The notes below the pieces were generated by a model. The model worked only from the letters and a program-made list of their open reading frames with translations, was not told the DNA's origin and did not search any database. Below, one piece after another: positions 2 to 10,590 of a stretch of 32,000 bases of DNA. Source of the stretch: Aquifex aeolicus VF5 (lineage in GTDB: Bacteria; Aquificota; Aquificia; Aquificales; Aquificaceae); the NCBI RefSeq assembly GCF_000008625.1, contig NC_000918.1, positions 720,001-752,000 of the forward strand, given 5' to 3'. Within the stretch, counting starts at the first letter, position 1, and every line of letters begins with the position of its first letter. Made by a program: the position numbers and the translations under genes.

Positions 2-652
2 CTTGAAGATATAACAAAGTTTTCTGGAAAAAACGGGGGTGTAATCAGAATAGGTGCCAGTAGTATTCCAGGAAACTACCTTCTTCCACAATTACTTGGG
101 GAATTTATTGAAAATTTTAAAGGTTATGTAAACGTGGAGCTTAGAGTAAGTGATAGCCAGGATATATATGAAAAAGTAATAAATGGAGACGTAGATTTAG
201 GAATTATAGGTTATCTGCCGAGAACAAATAAAGTGGATGCTATTAAATTTTATACCGATAGAATACTAATTGTAGGCAATCCAGAACTTGAAGATAAGGT
301 ATATACCTTAGAAGAGCTGATAAACTTACCTTTAGTTATAAGAGAAGTTGGTTCAGGAACGAGAAGTATTGTTGAAGACAAATTAAGAGAAAAAGGTTTA
401 TCCTTAAAAGAAATGAATATAGTAGCTGTATGTAACAGTAATGAAGCCGTTAAAAATACGCTTAAATACGTTAAGGGATTTTCCTTCCTTTCTAGCTATG
501 TTGTAAAAGATGATAAGTTTTTGATTAAATTAAAAGTAAAAAATTTTGACGATATAACCAGACAGTTTTACTTAATTCGAGACAAAAAACGTCCCTTACC
601 ATTTCTTACACAGGAGCTTATTAAGTTCTTAATAAAAGACATTTATGTTTAA
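2..652 (+). CDS. LysR-family transcriptional regulator, effector-binding C-terminal part (5' end outside window)
   Basis: The frame is open from base 2 (LEDITKFSGKNGGVIRIGASSIPGNYLLPQLLGEFIE...), so the ORF-track start at 134 is internal. The pattern is typical of an LTTR substrate-binding domain. Stop TAA at 650-652. Confidence 0.7.
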   Translation, partial: LEDITKFSGKNGGVIRIGASSIPGNYLLPQLLGEFIENFKGYVNVELRVSDSQDIYEKVINGDVDLGIIGYLPRTNKVDAIKFYTDRILIVGNPELEDKVYTLEELINLPLVIREVGSGTRSIVEDKLREKGLSLKEMNIVAVCNSNEAVKNTLKYVKGFSFLSSYVVKDDKFLIKLKVKNFDDITRQFYLIRDKKRPLPFLTQELIKFLIKDIYV

Positions 653-724
653 TTTTTCGAACATTTTCATTGAATAATTAAATAAATAAGTTATGTGATA
701 TTTGAATATAAGGAATTTATTAAC

Positions 725-737
725 ATGCAATATGCAT
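725..737. promoter_or_regulatory. Inverted repeat ATGCA-N3-TGCAT in the A+T-rich fdh upstream region; candidate regulator (LysR?) site
   Basis: ATGCAATATGCAT read directly. It lies about 140 nt upstream of the fdoG start, downstream of a same-strand LysR gene. No functional evidence. Confidence 0.2.
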
Positions 738-873
738 TGATACACAATAAAAAAATGTTCATATGCCTATTTTTAAAATATTGTTTTGAAAATTTTGTCT
801 TTTTTTTAAATTTTTTCATGATTTGAAAGGGGAATAAACTAAAAACTAAGAATGCTTAAAGGAGGTGAATTAC

Positions 874-3800
874 ATGGATATTTCAAGGAGGGGTTTTTTA
901 AAACTATCAGTAGGTAGTGTTGGAGCTGGGATATTAGGTGGTCTCGGTTTTGATCTTACACCTGCTTATGCACGTGTAAGAGATTTAAAAATAACAAAGG
1001 CAAAAGTAACAAAAAGTATATGTCCTTACTGCTCCGTATCCTGTGGAATACTAGCCTACTCCCTTTCCGACGGAGCGATGAATGTTAAAGAAAGAATAAT
1101 ACACGTAGAGGGTAACCCGGATGACCCGATAAATAGAGGAACTTTATGTCCTAAAGGGGCAACCTTAAGAGATTTCGTAAACGCTCCTGATAGGCTTACC
1201 AAGCCCTTGTACAGACCTGCAGGATCTACAGAATGGAAAGAAATAAGCTGGGACGAGGCTATAGAGAAGTTCGCAAGATGGGTAAAGGATACGAGGGATA
1301 GGACCTTTATACACAAGGACAAGGCTGGAAGGGTGGTGAACAGATGTGACTCCATAGTTTGGGCTGTGGGCTCACCCCTTGGGAACGAAGAGGGGTGGCT
1401 CATGGTAAAGATCGGTATAGCCTTAGGTCTCTCGGCACGAGAAACGCAGGCGACTATATGACACGCACCTACGGTGGCCAGTTTGGCCCCAACCTTTGGA
1501 AGAGGAGCAATGACTAACAACTGGGTGGACATCTCCAACTCTGACCTCGTATTCGTAATGGGAGGAAACCCGGCGGAGAACCACCCCTGTGGTTTTAAGT
1601 GGGCCATAAAAGCTCGTGAGAAGAGGGGTGCAAAGATAATATGCATAGACCCAAGGTTTAACAGAACCGCCGCTGTGGCAGATATCTTCGTTCAGATAAG
1701 ACCGGGAACAGATATAGCTTTCCTCGGAGGTCTGATTAACTATGTCCTTCAGAACGAGAAGTATCAGAAGGAGTATGTGAGACTGCACACAACAGGACCC
1801 TTCATAGTGAGGGAGGACTTCGGCTTCAAGGACGGACTCTTTACGGGATACGATCCTAAGACGAGGAGCTACGACACGACCACCTGGGACTACGAGTTCG
1901 ATCCTGCTACGGGATATCCCAAGATGGATCCCGAGATGAAGCATCCCAGATGTGTTCTCAACATCCTGAAGGAGCACTACTCGAGGTATACCCCGGAGGT
2001 CGTCTCCCAGATATGTGGATGTTCCAAGGAGGACTTCCTCAGAGTTGCAGAGGAGGTGGCTAAGTGTGGAGCTCCCAATAAGTTCATGACAATCCTCTAT
2101 GCCTTGGGATGGACCCATCACTCCTACGGAACCCAGCTCATAAGAACTGCCTGTATGCTTCAGCTTCTGCTTGGAAACATAGGTTGTCCGGGAGGAGGAA
2201 TAAATGCCCTCAGAGGTCACTCTAACGTTCAGGGTATGACTGATCTCGCCGGGCAGAACAAGAACCTCCCCACCTACATAAAGCCTCCCAAGCCGGAGGA
2301 ACAAACCCTCGCCCAGCACCTTAAGAACAGGACACCGAGAAAGCTCCATCCCACCAGCCTGAACTACTGGGCAAACTATCCTAAGTTCTTTATCAGCTTT
2401 CTCAAGTGTATGTGGGGCGACGCCGCAACGCCTGAAAATGACTTCGCCTACGACTATCTATACAAACCCGAAGGAGGCTACAACTCCTGGGATAAGTTCA
2501 TAGACGACATGTACAAAGGAAAGATAGAGGGAGTGGTAACCGCAGCCCTTAACTTCTTGAATAACACACCTAACGCCAAGAAGACGGTAAGGGCTCTCAA
2601 AAACCTCAAGTGGATGGTTGTAATGGATCCTTTCATGATAGAGACAGCCCAGTTCTGGAAGGCGGAGGGGTTAGACCCGAAAGAAGTCAAGACGGAGATT
2701 CTCGTCCTTCCAACGGCTGTATTTCTCGAGAAGGAAGGTTCCTTCACCAACAGCGCGAGGTGGGTAAAGTGGAAATACAAGGCTACCGATCCCCCAGGAG
2801 ATGCGAAAGACGAATTCTGGATATTTGGAAGATTCTTTATGAAATTGAAAGAATTTTATGAAAAAGAAGGAGGAGCTTTCCCCGAACCGATTCTCAACCT
2901 CGTCTGGCCCTACAAGAATCCATACTATCCGACTGCAGAAGAAATACTTACCGAAATAAACGGATACTACACAAGGGACGTGGACGGTCACAAGAAGGGA
3001 GAGAGGGTAAGACTCTTCACTGATCTGAGAGACGACGGATCAACTGCCTGCGGGGGATGGCTCTACTGTGGCGTATTCCCGCCTGAGGGCAACCTTGCAA
3101 AGAGAACTGACCTCAGCGATCCCCTCGGTCTGGGAACCTATCCGAACTACGCCTGGAACTGGCCCGCCAACAGGAGGGTCCTCTACAACAGAGCCTCCTG
3201 CGATGAAAAGGGAAGACCGTGGGACCCAGAAAGACCCCTCCTGAGATGGGATCCTGAAAGAGACATGTGGGTAGGTGATATACCTGATTATCCTGCTACC
3301 GCACCTCCCGAAAAGGGTATAGGTGCTTTCATAATGCTCCCAGAAGGAAAAGGAAGATTGTTTGCAGCAAAAAGCTATGTTACATTCAAAGATGGGCCAC
3401 TTCCCGAACACTATGAACCTTATGAATCTCCCGTGACGAATATTCTCCATCCTAATGTTCCTCACAACCCCGTTGCAAAAGTATACAAATCTGATCTGGA
3501 TCTGTTAGGAACTCCCGATAAATTCCCTCATGTTGCTACCACTTATAGGCTAACTGAACATTATCACTTCTGGACAAAGCATCTGTACGGTCCTTCACTG
3601 CTTGCACCAGTAATGTTCATTGAAATACCTGAAGAACTGGCAAAGGAGAAAGGTATCCAAAACGGAGACTTAGTTAGAGTTTCTACTGCAAGAGCATCAA
3701 TAGAAGCTATAGCTTTAGTAACAAAAAGAATAAAACCTCTAAAAGTTGCAGGAAAGACCGTATACACAATAGGTATACCAATACACTGGGGATTTGAAGG

Positions 3801-3912
3801 TCTAGTGAAAGGTGCCATAACAAATTTCATAACGCCCAACGTCTGGGATCCCAACTCTAGAACTCCTGAGTTTAAGGGCTTTCTTGCAAACATTGAAAAG
3901 GTGAAAACTTAA
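874..3912 (+). CDS. fdoG: Formate dehydrogenase (N/O type) catalytic alpha subunit, molybdopterin enzyme, selenocysteine-containing, Tat-exported
   Basis: ORF-track entries 865..1461 and 1474..3912 share one frame and are separated only by TGA 1459-1461. The context ...ETQATI-U-HAPTVASLAPTFGRGAMTNNW matches the FdnG/FdoG Sec site. Twin-arginine leader MDISRRGFLK. SD AAAGGAGGTG lies 7 nt before ATG 874. N-terminal CxxCxxC...C Fe-S motif (CPYCSVSCG). Confidence 0.93.
1459..1461 (+). other. In-frame UGA recoded as selenocysteine
   Basis: TGA at the position of the catalytic Sec in FdnG/FdoG/FdhF homologues. Reading continues in the same frame for more than 800 codons. Confidence 0.88.
1473..1490 (+). 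promoter_or_regulatory. Bacterial SECIS upper stem-loop
   Basis: GGuGGCC-AGUUU-GGCCCC: pairs 1473-1490, 1474-1489, 1476-1488, 1477-1487, 1478-1486, 1479-1485, with U1475 bulged. The hairpin starts 11 nt after the UGA. Counting the U of UGA as +1, the bulged U is +17 and the loop G,U are +23,+24. Confidence 0.75.
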
Positions 3913-3926
3913 GGGAGGTGTAAAAA

Positions 3927-4838
3927 ATGAGCACATTAACTACTGGTGGAACTGTAGGGCTTGGGATTAAGAGACTTTCCGCTTCTAAAGAACCAGACAC
4001 TTCCGTAAAAACTTATCCCGAACTTGCGATTCTCGTAGATGTCTCTTCTTGTATAGGTTGTAAAGCCTGTGAAGCGGCATGTCAGCAATGGCACGATACA
4101 ACTCCTCCCATACTTTCTCCAGAAGAAGTAATAAAGAGGAAAATAGCTGGTTACCAAACTCATCCCGATCTGCTGCCGGAAACATTTATGCTAATGAAGT
4201 TTAAGGAAGGAGAAACAAGCCGTGGATTTACTTGGTTTATAACCAAATACCAATGTATGCACTGCAGGGAACCGGGATGTCTGATCGCCTGCCCCTCCCC
4301 CGGGGCGGTAATCCAGTACCAGAACGGCGTGGTGGACTTCGACCACTCCAAGTGCATAGGTTGTAAAATGTGCTTGGTGGGCTGTCCCTTTGATATTCCG
4401 AGGTACGATAAGAATAACAAACCTTGGAAATGCAACTTCTGTATCGACAGGGTAAGTGCAGGTTTAGAACCAGCCTGCGTGAAGACCTGCCCAACCAACT
4501 GCCTCTCCTTCGGCTTTAAGGAGGATATGATAGAGAGGGGTAAGAAGATAGTGGAGAGATTAAAGGAGAGGGGGTACCCGAACGCAACCCTCTACGATCC
4601 TCCGGGTGTCGGTGGAACGGGATACATTTACGTTCTTCCCCACGGTGATCATGTGAAGGACTATCAGCTTCCCGAAAACCCGAGGGTGGATGCATCGATA
4701 GGTCTGTGGAAGGGTCCTCTGAAGACGATAGGAAGCATAGCCTTTTGGGGCACACTTCTGGGTGTGTTCCTTCAGTTGATACTCTGGGGACCGATAAAGG
4801 TCCTCGGCGGAAAGGAAGAAAAAAGTGAGGAGGGTTAA
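3927..4838 (+). CDS. fdoH: Formate dehydrogenase iron-sulfur beta subunit (4x[4Fe-4S], C-terminal membrane anchor)
   Basis: Multiple CxxCxxCxxxCP ferredoxin motifs and a hydrophobic C-terminal helix (IAFWGTLLGVFLQLILWG). SD GGGAGGTG precedes the ATG; 14-nt gap after fdoG. Confidence 0.9.
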   Translation: MSTLTTGGTVGLGIKRLSASKEPDTSVKTYPELAILVDVSSCIGCKACEAACQQWHDTTPPILSPEEVIKRKIAGYQTHPDLLPETFMLMKFKEGETSRGFTWFITKYQCMHCREPGCLIACPSPGAVIQYQNGVVDFDHSKCIGCKMCLVGCPFDIPRYDKNNKPWKCNFCIDRVSAGLEPACVKTCPTNCLSFGFKEDMIERGKKIVERLKERGYPNATLYDPPGVGGTGYIYVLPHGDHVKDYQLPENPRVDASIGLWKGPLKTIGSIAFWGTLLGVFLQLILWGPIKVLGGKEEKSEEG

Positions 4839-4840
4839 TC

Positions 4841-5476
4841 ATGGCGGTAGAGTACAAAAAGGCTTACGAAGAGCAGATAGAGAGGTTCTCAGCCCTCGAC
4901 AGGATTCTCCACTGGACGACAGCCCTCGCCTTCCTTTACTGTTTCCTGTCGGGGATAGGGATAGCCTACGCCAAGTTCCACTGGCTGCTGACCTTTCTCG
5001 GTGGTGGTGAATTCGCCCGCTGGCTCCATCCGTGGGCCGGCGTCGTCTTTTCAATAGGCGCGGTCCTTATGATCCTCAAATGGGCAAGGGACATGGTGAT
5101 CACTAGAGAGGACATAGTATGGCTGACGAAGATAAAAGCCTACATAAGCGGAAGGCACGAGGAACTTCCCGAGGTCGGAAAATATAATGCAGGGCAGAAG
5201 CTATACGCCTGGGTGGTCTTCCTTAGCGCTATAGTCTTTTTCCTTACGGGTATACTTATGTGGTTTCCGGAAAACTTCAGTATGGGACTAGTGCGCTGGT
5301 CTGTGGTTATACACGAGATAACTTTCATAATAGCCGGAGCCTTCACTATAATACACATCTACATGGCAACCGTCGGAGTTCCGGGCTCCATATGGGGCAT
5401 GATAGGAGGAAAGGTATCAGCCACGTGGGCTAAGTTCCATCACCCCAAGTGGTACAGGGAGGTGGTAAAGAGGTAA
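4841..5476 (+). CDS. fdoI: Formate dehydrogenase cytochrome b556 gamma subunit
   Basis: Four predicted TM helices with conserved His residues (ILHW..., HPW, HEITF, IHIY). 2-nt gap after fdoH; SD GAGGAGGG. Confidence 0.85.
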   Translation: MAVEYKKAYEEQIERFSALDRILHWTTALAFLYCFLSGIGIAYAKFHWLLTFLGGGEFARWLHPWAGVVFSIGAVLMILKWARDMVITREDIVWLTKIKAYISGRHEELPEVGKYNAGQKLYAWVVFLSAIVFFLTGILMWFPENFSMGLVRWSVVIHEITFIIAGAFTIIHIYMATVGVPGSIWGMIGGKVSATWAKFHHPKWYREVVKR

Positions 5477-5495
5477 GTGTCATGAGAAAGCTTAG

Positions 5496-6005
5496 GTGTT
5501 TGAGCAGTGGGATGCGCTCTGCGCCGTCCTTTTTTCTTTCTCAATAGCACAGGAGCTCAAAACACATGCAGACATAGTGAACCAGAAGGGCGAGAAGATA
5601 GGCAAAGCTGAGCTCATACAGACCAACAGTGGAGTTCTCATAAAGCTTGAAGCCTCAAATCTACCACCCAACGCGGAGCTTGCCTTTCACATCCATGAGC
5701 TTGGCAAGTGCGACCCTCCCGACTTTAAGTCCGCAAAGGGACACTTCAACCCCTTTAAGAAAAAGCACGGCCTTTTAAACCCCGAAGGTCCCCACGCTGG
5801 AGACATGCCCAATATTCACACCGATGATAAGGGAAACGTAAGGGTTCAGGTATTAAATCCCTTTGTAACCTTGAAAAAAGGAAAGAAAAATAGCTTATTT
5901 AAAGAAGGCGGAACGGCACTCGTCATTCATGGCGGACCTGACGACTACAAGTCTGATCCCGCGGGAAACGCAGGAAAAAGGATAGCATGTGGGGTGGTGA
6001 AATGA
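5496..6005 (+). CDS. sodC: Cu,Zn superoxide dismutase (start uncertain, see findings)
   Basis: Motifs FHIHE.GKC, GHFNP, HAGD.PN and ALVIHGG.DD...P.GNAG.RIACGV are diagnostic for SodC. The stop overlaps the fdhE ATG (ATGA). Confidence 0.85.
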   Translation: MFEQWDALCAVLFSFSIAQELKTHADIVNQKGEKIGKAELIQTNSGVLIKLEASNLPPNAELAFHIHELGKCDPPDFKSAKGHFNPFKKKHGLLNPEGPHAGDMPNIHTDDKGNVRVQVLNPFVTLKKGKKNSLFKEGGTALVIHGGPDDYKSDPAGNAGKRIACGVVK

Positions 6006-6838
6006 ATATATTCAAGCAAAAAGAAAGAGAATTTGCTTTAAATAGGATTCCTGTTTTGAAGGAAAAATTTCCAGAATCTAACCAAATACTGAACTTTTTA
6101 TCTCATATTCTTGAATACCACAATTCTATTATTTCGGAGATTTCAGATTTAAGTATATCTCTTGATAACCAAAATATAGAAAGTAGATTAGGAAAAGGTA
6201 AACCCGCTTTAAAGCTTTCAGAATATGATTTCGAACCTTTCCTCAAGTACTTTTATCCTTTATTGAATATTGTCTATGAACATGGTACCCCACAAATGAA
6301 AGAAAGAGTAGAGCATTTACAAAGTCTTGAAAAAAAAGAAATATTATCTTTAATATCTTCTTTTTTAGAAAATGGAATTTCGGACGATATGCTGAGATTC
6401 TTCCTTATATCTTATCTCCAACCTATACTCTATACATTTGCAGATAAGGTTAAATTCGAACACGAAAGATGGTTTAAAAATTACTGTCCAGTTTGTGGGT
6501 CTAAACCGTCAGTTTCATTCATTATGGATACGGAAGATTGGGAAGGAGCACGTTTTCTGAGATGTAGTGTTTGTCTTACTGACTGGCTCTATGTAAGAAC
6601 AAAATGTGTAAATTGCGGCAATGTAGAAGACGATAGTTTAGATTATTTTATAAGTTCAGAATTAGATTATATAGAAATTCAAACATGTAAAAAGTGTAAT
6701 AGTTATATAAAAATCATAGATCTTAGAAAAGATGGACTTGCAGTGCCTGATTTAGAAGATATAGCTTCTGTTAGTCTTGATTTATGGGCTCAGGAACAAG
6801 GTTTTATAAAAGTTGAAAGGAATTTTATGGGGTACTAG
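6002..6838 (+). CDS. fdhE: Formate dehydrogenase accessory protein FdhE
   Basis: Four CxxC pairs (CPVCGS, CSVCLT, CVNCGN, CKKCNS) in FdhE-like spacing. Sits in the fdh operon. ATG 6002 overlaps the sodC stop. Confidence 0.8.
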   Translation: MNIFKQKEREFALNRIPVLKEKFPESNQILNFLSHILEYHNSIISEISDLSISLDNQNIESRLGKGKPALKLSEYDFEPFLKYFYPLLNIVYEHGTPQMKERVEHLQSLEKKEILSLISSFLENGISDDMLRFFLISYLQPILYTFADKVKFEHERWFKNYCPVCGSKPSVSFIMDTEDWEGARFLRCSVCLTDWLYVRTKCVNCGNVEDDSLDYFISSELDYIEIQTCKKCNSYIKIIDLRKDGLAVPDLEDIASVSLDLWAQEQGFIKVERNFMGY

Positions 6839-6840
6839 CT

Positions 6841-7368
6841 GTGAAAAGGAGAACGTTTTTAGAATCTCTTCTATTTCTTTTTTTAATAAAAACGGGTTTT
6901 AGTATGGAACGAAAGATAGACGTTTTAGGATGTACCTTGTGGACTGATAGACTTTACAGAGTCGAACCCTATAGAATGTTATTCCAATGGGTAAAGGATG
7001 AAGGAAATGGTATTTATTCTGTAGGAATGGCTTCTATTTTAGCTGCTCTAGCGTATCCACTTTACTCGATAAAAATAAAACCTGTTGGCACTAAGCTGGA
7101 GTACGACGAAGCATTAGCAATAATTGAGGCGGGGAAAAGAGTTGCAACATTCCCGACACCTCTATCTGGCATAGTGGTAGATGTAAATGAAGAAGTGATT
7201 AAAAATCCTGAGCTTATAAATAAAAAACCTTACAGTTCTTGGATTGCTAAGCTAAAAGCTACAAACTTAGAAGAAGTAAAGAACTTACAAAGTGCAAAGG
7301 AGATAGTTAAGACGGTGAAAGATTTTATAATTTTGGAGGATGTAGATTGTTCTATTGTAGAAGAATAG
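6841..7368 (+). CDS. Glycine-cleavage H-protein-like lipoyl-domain protein with N-terminal RR-containing hydrophobic leader
   Basis: VGTKLEYDEALAIIEAGKRVATFPTPLSGIVVDVNEEVIKNPELINKKPYSSWIAKLK aligns with the GcvH lipoyl-lysine region (..ES.K....PvSG.vvevN..l...PelvN..PY..gW..k.k). Lys codon at 7135-7137. N-terminus (V)KRRTFLESLLFLFLI. GTG start lies 2 nt after the fdhE stop; the alternative ATG is at 6904. Confidence 0.7.
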   Translation: MKRRTFLESLLFLFLIKTGFSMERKIDVLGCTLWTDRLYRVEPYRMLFQWVKDEGNGIYSVGMASILAALAYPLYSIKIKPVGTKLEYDEALAIIEAGKRVATFPTPLSGIVVDVNEEVIKNPELINKKPYSSWIAKLKATNLEEVKNLQSAKEIVKTVKDFIILEDVDCSIVEE

Positions 7369-7370
7369 AA

Positions 7371-7469
7371 GGGAGAGGTTGGCCGGCTGGTGCCGCCCCG
7401 GGACTTCAAATCCCGTGGGAGGTCCCGCAAGGGAGCTCCGGAGGGTTCGATTCCCTCCCTCTCCCGCCA
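7371..7469 (+). tRNA. selC: tRNA-Sec (anticodon TCA), 99 nt, CCA encoded
   Basis: 8-bp acceptor stem GGGAGAGG/CCTCTCCC and 5-bp T stem GAGGG/CCCTC with TTCGATT loop. Anticodon loop CTTCAAA. Long variable arm closed by a GCAA loop. Discriminator G plus CCA. Confidence 0.93.
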
Positions 7470-7479
7470 ATAAGTTGTT

Positions 7480-8592
7480 ATGATTTACTTTGATAACGCG
7501 GCAACTACACCTGTACTTCCAGAAGTAAAAAACTTCCTATGTAAAGCACTAGACATTTATGGGAATCCATCAAGTGTACATACACTAGGCAAATTTGCAA
7601 GAAGTGAAATAGAAACGGCAAGAAAAACAATTGCGAATTATTTGAAAGTAAAACCGGAAAATATTATTTTTAACTCTTGTGCAACTGAAGGAAATAATAC
7701 GATAATAAGAACGATATTAAACAATAAAGATAGGGGCAATGTAGTATTATCAGCAATAGAACATAAATCTGTGAAAGAGGCAATAAAATTTTGGGCAAAT
7801 AAAAGTATAGAAATAAGAGAGATTAAAGTAAATAAAAATGGAGTAATTGATTTAGAACACCTTTACCATTTGATTGATAGTAATACAATTTTAGTTTGCG
7901 TTATGTATGTAAGCAACGAATTCGGAACAATTCAGCCTATACAGGAAATAGCTAAAATTTGCTCCGATAAGGGTGTACCATTGCTAACAGATGCAGTGCA
8001 AGCAATAGGAAAAATCCCAATTGAACTAAAAAATATATCCTATGCGACATTTTCTGGACATAAATTTCACGCTATAAAAGGAAGTGGATTTTTATACATT
8101 TCTGACGAAGCTAATTATGAGCCTCTTATAGTTGGTGGAGGACAAGAAAATGGAAAAAGATCAGGTACAGAAAATGTTGTAGGAATACTTTCGTTAGCTA
8201 AAGCACTTGAAATAATTGTTTCTAACTTTTCGCGCTATCAGGAACAGCTTAAAAAATTAAGAGATCTTTTTGAGAATCTATTGCTTGAAGCTTTGCCAGA
8301 TGCTCAAATTGTAGGAAAAGATGCAGAAAGAAGTCCCTCAATATCTTCTGTTATTATGCCTAAATTTTTCGGAGCAGAAATAGTTAATAAATTATCAGAA
8401 AAGGGAATATATTGCTCGACTGGATCAGCCTGTTTATCAGGAGAATATGAGCCGAATAAACATATGTTGAAAATGGGGTTTTCTCAAGAAAAAGCTTTAA
8501 GAATGGTACGCTTTTCATTTGGTCTTTTAAACAAAGAGGAAGAAGTAATAGAATGTATAGAAAGAATAAAAGAAATTTATAGATTAAATTAA
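7480..8592 (+). CDS. NifS/IscS-like class V PLP-dependent cysteine desulfurase (possible selenocysteine lyase)
   Basis: PLP-lysine motif SGHKFHAIKGSGFLY and active-site loop STGSACLSGE (group I SxGSAC). Length 370 aa. ATG lies 10 nt after the tRNA-Sec CCA, with no SD. Confidence 0.8.
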   Translation: MIYFDNAATTPVLPEVKNFLCKALDIYGNPSSVHTLGKFARSEIETARKTIANYLKVKPENIIFNSCATEGNNTIIRTILNNKDRGNVVLSAIEHKSVKEAIKFWANKSIEIREIKVNKNGVIDLEHLYHLIDSNTILVCVMYVSNEFGTIQPIQEIAKICSDKGVPLLTDAVQAIGKIPIELKNISYATFSGHKFHAIKGSGFLYISDEANYEPLIVGGGQENGKRSGTENVVGILSLAKALEIIVSNFSRYQEQLKKLRDLFENLLLEALPDAQIVGKDAERSPSISSVIMPKFFGAEIVNKLSEKGIYCSTGSACLSGEYEPNKHMLKMGFSQEKALRMVRFSFGLLNKEEEVIECIERIKEIYRLN

Positions 8593-8706
8593 AACGTCCA
8601 TCAACACAATTCTATAAAGGTGTAGAAAAAACAGTTTAGATATTAACTTATCACAGCCTAAAGAAAGGTAAGAAAGGCTGAAGAAGCAGTTAGAAGAACT
8701 ATTTAA

Positions 8707-8990
8707 AAAGTTAGAGAAACGAATGAGGTAGACTCGTCAATAAAAGCAAAGTCAGTAATACTGTATTTTAACGGAATATCTTTCAGAAAAGCAGTTCAAA
8801 TAATAGAACAGGAAACTGGTCTACGTGGATGAAACGAAGATAAAAGCAAGGGGCAAGCAGTATCGGTGGAAATCTTGCAGGGAGCTAAAATGCGGATGAA
8901 TACATGAAACTTTTGAAGTAGAAATGTGGTAAAGAGGTGGTTCAAGCATATTAAGCAGAGGATAAAGGGCTTTTACAAACTCTTTCTCCT
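8707..8990 (+). pseudogene. Decayed IS6-like (DDE) transposase remnant, multiple frameshifts and internal deletions
   Basis: Three short collinear segments in different frames. KAKSVILYFNGISFRKAVQIIEQETGL is HTH-like. VDETKIKARGKQY matches the first catalytic D region of IS6-type transposases. VKRWFKHIKQRIKGFYKLF matches the C-terminal ERfF..lK.R...Fy motif. There is no ORF of 60 aa or more in the 406-nt gap. Confidence 0.5.
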
Positions 8991-8998
8991 TTATTACT

Positions 8999-10590
<1,592 letters not shown>

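Follow-up and report, generated by a model that had tools for sequence, protein, structure and literature searches.

An LbpA-like lipoyl protein with a candidate Tat leader is encoded in the selenocysteine formate dehydrogenase operon of Aquificaceae

To our knowledge, the lipoyl proteins characterised so far are all cytoplasmic or located in the matrix of organelles: the E2 subunits of the 2-oxoacid dehydrogenases, GcvH, and the LbpA proteins that act in sulfur oxidation. The closest described relatives of the protein discussed here, the product of aq_1052 ('gcvH1') of Aquifex aeolicus, are the LbpA proteins of sHdr systems (Cao et al. 2018, eLife, PMC6067878), with which it shares the GcvH fold, the E-[SA]-G-K lipoyl motif, a cysteine near each terminus and an extended C-terminal helix. 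The signature of LbpA is a pair of conserved cysteines that GcvH lacks, located towards opposite ends of the protein, and the authors of that study likened the C-terminal one to that of SoxY (PMC6067878). LbpA proteins are leaderless, start at a Met that is internal in aq_1052 and are encoded in clusters with hdr, dsrE, tusA and lipoate-ligase genes, whereas the aq_1052 protein has a twin-arginine (RR) leader of its own, an insert of 4-5 residues before FQW and a formate dehydrogenase operon as its setting. Canonical GcvH (TIGR00527) is alike in fold and in the position of the lipoyl lysine, but the aq_1052 protein is only ~25-30% identical to it and differs in its two extra cysteines, its N-terminal leader and the lack of gcvT/gcvP neighbours.

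Two other known systems invite comparison. SoxY is also a small carrier, exported to the periplasm, with its substrate on a C-terminal cysteine; this is a functional analogy only, as SoxY has an unrelated fold, no lipoyl cofactor and another partner enzyme. FdhE is encoded in the same operon as the lipoyl protein, with the two genes translationally coupled, and neither FdhE nor FdhD has any sequence or fold kinship to it. FdhD is a sulfur-relay factor whose partner is a cysteine desulfurase, and we know of no case in which FdhE or FdhD is exported.

The lipoyl-protein gene occupies 6841..7368 on the forward strand of the window (the whole 32,000-nt stretch of A. aeolicus VF5 DNA that was analysed), starts with GTG and encodes 175 aa, with a translation that opens VKRRTFLESLLFLFLIKTGFSMERK. 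Residues 48-161 match Pfam GCV_H (PF01597; E 1.2e-39, 135 bits) in the profile check that the initial annotation had proposed. That annotation had described the C-terminal ~110 aa as GcvH-like; the fold is as it said, and the length is not, since the alignable region spans ~145 aa (residues ~27-172). The AF2 model of the 175-aa protein has a pLDDT of 90, and its best Foldseek matches are H-proteins with target-normalised TM-scores of 0.72-0.90. Lys99 (AAA, 7135..7137, +; in the motif IEAGK), located at the hairpin turn, is invariant in 37 aligned sequences and is aligned with the lipoyl lysine of E. coli GcvH (in ESVK), bearing out its earlier assignment as the lipoyl-attachment residue, so that both the fold and the lipoyl lysine of the GcvH family are present. 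Homologues (n=49) are mostly 173-175 aa long, and the named ones are almost all from Aquificota, together with one MAG labelled Acidobacteria.

The two cysteines lie at opposite ends of the domain and are both invariant in the alignment. Cys31 (TGT, 6931..6933, +) is in the N-terminal strand and aligns with that of LbpA and of other two-Cys relatives, and Cys170 (TGT, 7348..7350, +) is in the C-terminal helix and aligns with the C-terminal Cys of LbpA proteins. A reading of V-L-G-C31 as a lipoprotein site was considered and rejected: charged residues (e.g. MGKDIK) intervene between the hydrophobic stretch and the Cys, the residue at -2 is frequently Lys or His, and the Cys lies inside a confident beta-strand in the AF2 model.

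When compared with profiles of GcvH proper, the protein scores 56.9 against a cutoff of 115.85 for the equivalog TIGR00527 and 81.6 against a cutoff of 117 for NF002270, and seven orthologues give similar values below both cutoffs. In a profile search against 1.84 billion representatives, where the whole Aquificaceae clade forms one cluster, the next full-length match after that cluster was P0050 at 113 bits, with canonical GcvH at ~68 bits or less. P0050 is encoded in an sHdr cluster (locus L028) with the order hdrB-hdrA-hyp-hdrC-hdrB2-lbpA-dsrE-P0050-radical SAM, and P0050 and its neighbour there are the LbpA copies of Aquificaceae. The initial annotation had called for a phylogeny against LbpA-type and GcvH proteins; in a neighbour-joining tree the Aquificaceae proteins form a single clade of their own (bootstrap 100), whose sister is the LbpA/two-Cys group (bootstrap 66). 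Membership of the GcvH-family fold is upheld and the identity is corrected towards the LbpA type: by these comparisons, the aq_1052 protein is nearer to the two-cysteine lipoate-binding proteins of the LbpA type than to GcvH proper. It has the cysteine pair of LbpA (C31 and C170), and its genomic context is not the hdr-like sulfur-oxidation cluster of LbpA, the gene following fdhE in 22/22 loci.

The operon upstream, on the same strand, encodes a formate dehydrogenase. The fdoG/fdnG-type alpha subunit gene (874..3912; Pfam Molybdop_Fe4S4, Molybdopterin and Molydop_binding; TIGR01553 formate-DH-alpha, 1554 bits) contains an in-frame TGA (Sec) at 1459-1461, with the translation running ...QATI*HAPT across it, and its product carries the leader MDISRRGFLK. 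It is followed by fdoH (3927..4838, +), for an Fe-S beta subunit with a C-terminal transmembrane helix (Pfam Fer4_11, Form-deh_trans), and fdoI (4841..5476, +), for a cytochrome b gamma subunit (Pfam Ni_hydr_CYTB, E 5e-31). FdoGHI is an FDH-N-type periplasmic quinone-linked complex. A Cu/Zn superoxide dismutase gene, sodC (5496..6005, +; Pfam Sod_Cu, E 1e-40), is inserted in the operon before fdhE (5987..6838, +; Pfam FdhE_central, FdhE_C), which encodes the formate dehydrogenase accessory protein. On the other side of the lipoyl gene, 2 nt past its stop, is selC (tRNA-Sec; 7371..7469, +; ARAGORN; Rfam RF01852, 71.9 bits), and then a gene for a NifS/IscS-like class V PLP enzyme of the cysteine desulfurase / selenocysteine lyase type (7480..8592, +; Pfam Aminotran_5, E 6e-70), whose best NCBIfam matches, NifS and IscS, are all below cutoff.

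The neighbours returned by Pfam and ARAGORN agree with the fdh/selC unit described before, including FdoG with its SRRGFLK-type leader. The earlier statement that no glycine-cleavage partner lies nearby agrees with the Pfam scan, which found no gcvT, gcvP or lpd among the window ORFs. There is no selD in the window, an Rfam scan of the window returned two tRNAs only, and a scan of 600-9200 for promoters and terminators gave counts no higher than those expected from shuffled sequence. The order fdoG(Sec)-fdoH-fdoI-(sodC)-fdhE-lipoyl gene is kept in 22/22 Aquificaceae loci, with fdhE directly 5' of the lipoyl gene in every one and sodC between fdoI and fdhE in about half. Directly 3' of the lipoyl gene, selC is found in 21/22 of these loci; L112-L114 have it there too. 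The NifS-like gene is linked in the Aquifex/Hydrogenivirga branch only and is absent in the Hydrogenobacter/Thermocrinis branch; in Hydrogenivirga, selA and selB are located just upstream.

The candidate twin-arginine signal peptide, MKRRTFLESLLFLFLIKTGFS, corresponds to aa 1-21 (6841..6903, +), its GTG being coupled to the fdhE stop codon (TAG, 6836-6838). The translation from GTG 6841 is the one quoted in the initial annotation, and the RRxFL motif and short hydrophobic stretch noted there are present. Conservation in orthologues had been set in advance as the test on which the leader would stand or fall, and the leader passes it: all 22 orthologous Aquificaceae loci have ATG as the upstream start, abutting or overlapping the fdhE stop, often as ATGA, and the RR is invariant despite synonymous changes. 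At the DNA level, where the set comprises 23 sequences (the window copy and the 22 loci), the RR columns are 23/23 Arg, spelled by 3 to 5 different codons, and variability at codon positions 1/2/3 of the leader is 0.53/0.36/0.66, a coding-type pattern. The ATG starts, the RR invariance and the codon-position pattern rule out that the leader merely results from an ORF extended too far. The RR is set in an (S)RRxF/L-L/I-K context in 48 of 50 distinct N-termini, with a short run of hydrophobic residues and then a basic c-region behind it; MISRRILLS, MKRRDFLK and MRRREFLK are among them, and the window copy has MKRRTFLE.

The window copy is the weakest leader of the set, with a GTG start, no strong Shine-Dalgarno sequence, Glu replacing Lys after RRxFL and a hydrophobic stretch of 8 residues; a stronger orthologue example is MISRRILLSFFFSIPLIGRTRAM. 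Four of the five shorter database entries that were checked are gene-call artefacts with the leader in frame upstream: P0048, P0043, P0028 and P0027, which might be taken for leaderless proteins, are seen at the DNA level to have mis-called starts. P0039 also looks mis-called, as judged from the entry rather than from DNA. The only true leaderless lineage is that of P0025 (locus L113), which retains both cysteines and selC.

How do these leaders compare with described Tat signals? An S-R-R-x-F-L-K-like RR lies near the N-terminus in the same 48 of 50 N-termini, Lys or Arg is found ahead of the conserved Met in ~21/23 sequences, and candidate cleavage sites of the AxA type are available (ARA, AEA and AGA; GFS in the window copy). 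Pro or Gly, candidate helix breakers, is present in most leaders, and in most there is a Pro in the h-region. The basic c-region, the AxA-like sites and the h-region Pro agree with the Tat features reviewed in PMC7317946. The same review gives an h-region of at least 12 aa, of moderate hydrophobicity and with a helix breaker towards its end, and the uncharged stretch of the leaders is 8-15 residues long, with a median of 11 aa and a length of 8 in the window copy. The leaders are also more hydrophobic than that of FdoG (mean Kyte-Doolittle 2.05 versus 1.56). The Tat-signal HMM TIGR01409 (cutoff 16.7 bits), which is passed by the FdoG leader (19.5) and by the Dehalococcoidia protein P0222 (18.5), reported 0/8 Aquificaceae leaders, a result in which the speed filters of HMMER may have dropped weak matches. 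In the AF2 model the leader is a low-confidence helix. TatC is present in A. aeolicus, and a literature search on GcvH/LbpA in combination with Tat, signal peptide or fdhE found nothing relevant.

Right after the likely signal-peptidase site is Met22 (ATG, 6904..6906, +), a conserved internal codon at which translation could start. All 23 DNA-level sequences have such a start-capable codon 5-9 residues before Cys31; it is ATG in most, TTG in L005, L006 and L008, and GTG in L016. In the alignment, the Met22 position is that of the initiator Met of the leaderless LbpA relatives, and in the leaderless L113 it provides the sole start. Met22 may be a relic of the ancestral LbpA start and, possibly, a second site of initiation, although ATG 6904 has no clear Shine-Dalgarno sequence upstream. 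Given the conserved start-capable codon and a leaderless lineage that uses it as its only start, a cytoplasmic form may exist.

The explanation that we favour, and in which our confidence is about even, is that aq_1052 encodes an LbpA-type lipoate carrier that is exported by Tat and is a dedicated accessory of the periplasm-facing, Sec-containing FdoGHI in Aquificaceae. Translation would begin at the upstream codon coupled to fdhE (GTG 6841 here, ATG in other loci), the domain would fold and be lipoylated in the cytoplasm, and the (S)RRxF/L-L/I-K leader would direct the folded holo-protein to TatABC, with cleavage predicted at the small-x-small site immediately before the conserved Met. After export, FdoG would be served by a swinging thiol carrier made up of the lipoyl dithiol and both cysteines; the load of the carrier, speculatively, could be two electrons or sulfane S/Se. 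Its most likely job would be maintenance or maturation, the reduced selenol and the sulfido-Mo/W site being kept or restored under microaerobic conditions, a task that would sit beside that of the periplasmic SodC, whose gene is often part of this operon. We know of no periplasmic lipoamide reductase, which counts against an exported carrier.

Somewhat more tentatively, at a little under even confidence, this would amount to lipoate-dependent chemistry outside the cytoplasm: a Tat-exported, pre-lipoylated dithiol/persulfide (or perselenide) shuttle of the LbpA type, tied to a Se- and Mo/W-containing formate dehydrogenase and perhaps reduced with electrons from formate. If true, the exported lipoyl carrier would bring a new cofactor into the periplasmic toolbox and be a rare example of a lipoic-acid protein outside the cytoplasm, and the attachment of the cofactor to a folded domain in the cytoplasm would provide a concrete reason for Tat dependence. 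The much-studied FDH-N/O class would gain an additional accessory factor, and the finding would be relevant to the survival of oxygen-sensitive Sec and Mo=S sites in microaerophiles.

On a rival reading, translation effectively starts at ATG 6904 and the product is a cytoplasmic H-protein paralogue serving (reverse) glycine cleavage and one-carbon metabolism; its leader would have little function, and its place beside formate dehydrogenase would reflect no more than the entry of formate into the reductive glycine route. Such a route, drawing on this formate dehydrogenase, has been put forward for A. aeolicus, with aq_1052 listed as GcvH1 (PMC10052474), and the conserved internal start-capable codon and the natural leaderless variant (L113) would both fit. 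We nevertheless consider this decidedly unlikely: the GcvH equivalog scores are far below cutoff, the two-cysteine pattern resembles that of LbpA and is lacking in GcvH, the RR leader has an ATG start in 22/22 loci and a coding-type substitution pattern, gcvT/gcvP are absent nearby, and the dehydrogenase is an FDH-N-type periplasmic quinone-linked complex. GcvH paralogues of A. aeolicus are reportedly active in heterologous glycine cleavage assays, a point in favour of the cytoplasmic paralogue; against it, another paralogue, gcvH4 (aq_1108), has a tag adjoining that of gcvPA. This pairing with aq_1109, the tag of gcvPA, is taken from PMC10052474. The internal codon also bears on dual targeting, in which the fdhE-coupled start would yield an exported form and the internal start a cytoplasmic one, so that one carrier acts on FdoG with FdhE before export and again after it. 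The presence of the codon in all 23 DNA-level sequences, its match to the initiator Met of leaderless LbpA relatives and its use as the sole start in L113 would be expected of such an arrangement. Only two independent replacements of the ATG were seen, however, and the probability that both would keep a start-capable codon by chance is ~0.05, a weak argument; ATG 6904 lacks a clear Shine-Dalgarno sequence, and Met22 is equally explicable as a structural residue at the mature N-terminus. We regard dual targeting as unlikely.

A leader that is not cleaved could serve as a short membrane tether, or as a binding handle for FdhE or the Tat receptor, and the protein would then be an assembly escort that stays at the cytoplasmic face or travels with FdoGH. 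Translational coupling to the assembly-factor gene fdhE is consistent with such a role, as is a leader that is atypically short and unreported by TIGR01409. Its 8-15 uncharged residues are too short for a transmembrane helix, however, and cleaved Tat signals typically show the AxA-like sites and basic c-regions that are present here; since we also know of no escort protein with an RR peptide of its own, we find this role improbable. In a further reading the protein, exported or not, would serve the selenium pathway rather than the enzyme: selenite or selenide would be bound as selenotrisulfide or perselenide on the lipoyl dithiol and the cysteines, and the Se would be handed on, with the NifS-like enzyme, to selenophosphate and Sec-tRNA synthesis. 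The placement of selC directly after the gene in 21/22 loci would suit this, as would the NifS-like gene that comes after selC in one branch and the selA and selB genes just upstream in Hydrogenivirga. Dihydrolipoate is reported to form stable selenotrisulfides. A selenium role nonetheless seems to us quite unlikely, as the Hydrogenobacter/Thermocrinis branch lacks the NifS-like gene, the window has no selD, and the linkage to selC is simply explained by FdoG being the local selenoprotein.

RR leaders are also found on GcvH-like proteins of Dehalococcoidia/Chloroflexota (P0222, P0231 and P0107), which NCBI labels 'twin-arginine translocation signal domain-containing protein'. They resemble the aq_1052 protein in having a GCV_H domain with the lysine and an N-terminal Cys-x(4-6)-DRLY motif, with an RR leader ahead of them. 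They differ in their long canonical Tat signal, which passes TIGR01409, their lipobox-like Cys, their S/T-rich linker, the lack of the C-terminal Cys and their context, which is either ars operons or DsbD_2/rhodanese/lipoylation genes. As they lie on a separate branch, the leader was acquired independently. As far as predicted signals go, this Tat-lipoprotein family shows that there is a precedent for GcvH-like proteins with Tat signals and that the theme recurs, and an independent, surface-tethered counterpart in Dehalococcoidia arsenic-resistance operons would suggest a wider, unrecognised class of extracytoplasmic lipoyl proteins.

The only mention of aq_1052 in the literature that was searched is in a proteome table, and its product was not detected by mass spectrometry in an A. 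aeolicus soluble extract (PMC10052474). LipM of B. subtilis has been reported to be unable to modify A. aeolicus GcvH2, H3 and H5 (bioRxiv 10.1101/419234), which by implication would make H1, the aq_1052 protein, a competent acceptor. The public start sites of aq_1052 give proteins of 143 or 154 aa; both cut off the leader, the 143-aa version also lacks Cys31, and earlier biochemistry, if it relied on these annotated starts, which seems likely, used a truncated protein.

The lipoyl-protein gene is an ORF at 6841-7368 on the forward strand that opens with GTG 2 nt past the fdhE stop TAG (6836-6838) and encodes 175 aa, with the N-terminus VKRRTFLESLLFLFLIKTGFSMERK. Pfam GCV_H covers residues 48-161 (E 1.2e-39) and K99, within IEAGK (codon 7135-7137), is aligned to the lipoyl lysine of E. 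coli GcvH, which bears out the GcvH-type fold and lipoyl lysine proposed in the initial annotation. The AlphaFold2 model, built on a 37-sequence alignment, has a pLDDT of 90, with values above 95 from about residue 30 onward and a low-confidence helix at residues 1-22; its top Foldseek matches are solved H-proteins. As had also been claimed, there are no glycine-cleavage genes among the window ORFs scanned against Pfam.

This gene, aq_1052, carries the long-standing annotation gcvH1, with start sites that truncate it: its public entries (P0001 and P0002) are 154 aa (from ATG 6904) and 143 aa in length, and the shorter form, which probably starts at the TTG of codon 33, loses the leader plus Cys31. 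The 143-aa form is given as 16.2 kDa, and mass spectrometry of a soluble extract did not pick up the protein (PMC10052474). A. aeolicus GcvH2, H3, and H5 are reportedly not modified by B. subtilis LipM (bioRxiv 10.1101/419234), the implication being that GcvH1, the aq_1052 product, can act as a competent acyl acceptor. Full-text literature searches returned no account of the aq_1052 leader, its LbpA-like nature, or a link to formate dehydrogenase.

The protein scores well under the NCBI GcvH equivalog thresholds (56.9 vs 115.85 and 81.6 vs 117). When 1.84 billion cluster representatives were searched with a profile of the family, the entire fdo-linked clade fell into one representative, and the next full-length match was P0050 (113 bits), an Aquificaceae protein, followed by a series of proteins of ~137-158 aa, most covering about profile positions 27-172; canonical GcvH reached ~68 bits or less. 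The P0050 gene lies in locus L028 in the order hdrB-hdrA-hyp-hdrC-hdrB2-GCV_H-dsrE-P0050-radical SAM, which is an sHdr/LbpA sulfur-oxidation cluster. LbpA proteins have two strictly conserved cysteines, one near each terminus, that are absent from GcvH (eLife, PMC6067878); C31 and C170 of the lipoyl protein, invariant in the family alignment, align with these, and the E-[SA]-G-K motif is common to both groups. In a neighbor-joining tree the formate-dehydrogenase-linked proteins form a clade (100% bootstrap) that is sister to the LbpA/two-Cys group (66% support). Judged by these scores, residues, and tree position, GcvH is not the accurate label: the protein is an LbpA-like lipoate-binding protein that carries an RR leader. 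We also note that P0051, P0070, P0071, and P0099 are fusions in which a TusA-like domain follows an LbpA-like two-cysteine lipoate-binding domain at the C-terminal end; P0070, from a Bathyarchaeia MAG, is named a TusA family sulfurtransferase.

In the window, the gene order is a lysR fragment, fdoG, fdoH, fdoI, sodC, fdhE, the lipoyl-protein gene, selC (7371-7469), and a NifS-like gene. Translation of fdoG gives the leader MDISRRGFLK, confirming the SRRGFLK motif noted earlier, and an in-frame TGA for selenocysteine. The order fdoG(Sec)-fdoH-fdoI-(sodC)-fdhE-lipoyl-protein gene is found at 22/22 fetched loci, with sodC included in about half of them between fdoI and fdhE, and tRNA-Sec lies 2-15 nt downstream of the lipoyl-protein gene in 21/22 as well as at loci L112-L114. 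Given this constancy, the gene is a permanent part of the accessory tail in the operon for a periplasm-facing, Tat-exported selenoenzyme, and it is coupled translationally to the assembly factor gene fdhE. At 7369-7469 of the window, selC starts 2 nt past the lipoyl-protein stop codon with no terminator between them, and processing of the operon transcript probably yields the tRNA; a metagenomic gene call, P0045, runs on into the tRNA.

Cu/Zn superoxide dismutases of the SodC kind are usually periplasmic; the window copy (5496-6005, forward strand), read from its putative start GTG 5496, begins VFEQWDALCAVLFSFSIAQE, with no positively charged n-region. The one locus of the 22 at which ARAGORN gave no selC downstream, L012 (8001-9394), is labelled 'Acidobacteria bacterium', yet it carries an Aquificaceae-type operon whose FdoG is 61-69% identical to that of the window, and the bin is possibly mis-assigned. 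In Hydrogenivirga caldilitoris (L110/L111, 1-2818), selB and lysR, then selA farther out, lie directly upstream of the operon and form, with selC and the NifS-like gene, a compact selenoprotein island.

A search over 5.8 billion proteins gave 49 homologues, mostly of 173-175 aa and with full-length coverage, and nearly all of the named ones are from Aquificota (one MAG is labelled Acidobacteria). Their N-termini align as M-x-(x)-RR-x-F/L-L/I-K/S, then ~8-15 uncharged residues and a basic c-region. Loss of the leader in orthologues had been named as an argument against it, and the leader is conserved: RR is present in 48/50 distinct N-termini, and at the DNA level, examined at 22 Aquificaceae loci, the upstream start is ATG in all 22, located 1-5 nt past the fdhE stop or overlapping it as ATGA. 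Both Arg columns are Arg in 23/23 sequences through AGG, AGA, CGA, CGG, or CGT codons. Pairwise differences by codon position are 0.53, 0.36, and 0.66 in the leader and 0.31, 0.20, and 0.60 in the mature domain; the leader ordering is that expected of coding sequence, and its weaker constraint relative to the mature domain is typical of signal peptides. Most copies have Lys or Arg in the c-region, sites such as ARA, AEA, or AGA, and a Pro or Gly close to the end of the hydrophobic stretch, in agreement with the Tat features summarized in PMC7317946, where A. aeolicus TatC crystal structures are also recorded. Of five seemingly leaderless entries, P0048 (Thermocrinis albus), P0043, and P0028 have the leader in frame upstream at the DNA level, P0027 corresponds to L010, which has the full leader, and P0039 is probably another case of this kind.

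Alongside the fold, the lysine, the two LbpA-type cysteines, the RR leader with its coupled ATG, and the invariant operon position, all observed directly, we set the following model. The protein would be lipoylated in the cytoplasm, where the attachment enzymes are assumed to act, exported folded through Tat, and cleaved immediately ahead of a conserved Met; in the periplasm its lipoyl dithiol and cysteines would serve FdoG as a carrier of the thiol, persulfide, or perselenide type, most plausibly so that the oxygen-sensitive Sec and Mo/W-sulfido site of these microaerophiles is maintained or matured. We give such an exported carrier serving formate dehydrogenase roughly an even chance. We know of no lipoate-dependent carrier working in the periplasm so far and, if export is true, this would to our knowledge be the first. 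A role in selenium supply instead of enzyme maintenance seems unlikely. The near-constant neighbor selC speaks for it; the NifS-like gene follows selC only in the Aquifex/Hydrogenivirga branch. A cytoplasmic one-carbon GcvH, which shares the fold and lysine and has to be set against the sub-threshold scores and the lack of glycine-cleavage genes among the scanned window ORFs, ranks just behind as improbable.

The leader itself has points of weakness. The curated Tat-signal model TIGR01409 reported 0/8 Aquificaceae leaders and does report FdoG (19.5 bits vs a cutoff of 16.7); the uncharged stretch is short (median 11 aa) and exceeds the FdoG stretch in hydrophobicity (Kyte-Doolittle 2.05 vs 1.56). 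The window copy is the weakest, with a GTG start, an 8-residue stretch, and Glu in place of Lys after RRxFL. A leader retained as a non-cleaved tether or escort, which the short stretch and the TIGR01409 result favor and the AxA-like sites disfavor, is the least probable of the alternatives. Most sequences have a Met 5-9 residues ahead of Cys31 (window codon 6904-6906), and the codons that replace ATG at this position are TTG or GTG (L005, L006, L008, L016), a possible sign of a second initiation site and of the ancestral LbpA start. In one Aquificaceae lineage (P0025; L113, 1468-1965) the RR leader is absent altogether and the gene starts at the otherwise-internal ATG, 11 nt past the fdhE stop, retaining both cysteines and the adjoining selC. 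Since the internal Met is aligned to the initiator Met of leaderless relatives, the leader looks like an addition upstream of the ancestral start, and there may be a second, cytoplasmic isoform; dual initiation with two locations is unlikely as the main account but heads the alternatives to the exported carrier.

The profile search also gave P0107, whose relatives are Dehalococcoidia/Chloroflexota proteins of 198-259 aa (genes at L105 8001-8753, L106 8001-8699, L107 2896-3657, and L108 6001-6753). Their leaders are long canonical Tat signals that pass TIGR01409, and NCBI names already say so; a lipobox-like Cys and an S/T-rich linker are also present, and the GCV_H domain retains the lysine and the N-terminal Cys. 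Because this family sits on a separate branch of the tree from the Aquificaceae clade, GcvH-like domains have gained Tat leaders at least twice, and this raises the general plausibility of exporting such a domain. The genes lie in arsR-arsD-arsA operons, some of which add rhodanese, MauE/DoxX, and an SBF-family transporter (Pfam SBF/SBF_like), and one lies between a DsbD_2 membrane protein gene and rhodanese, LplA-like, and radical-SAM genes. Arsenite binds vicinal dithiols, which makes it suggestive that an arsenic operon encodes a candidate surface protein with a lipoyl dithiol.
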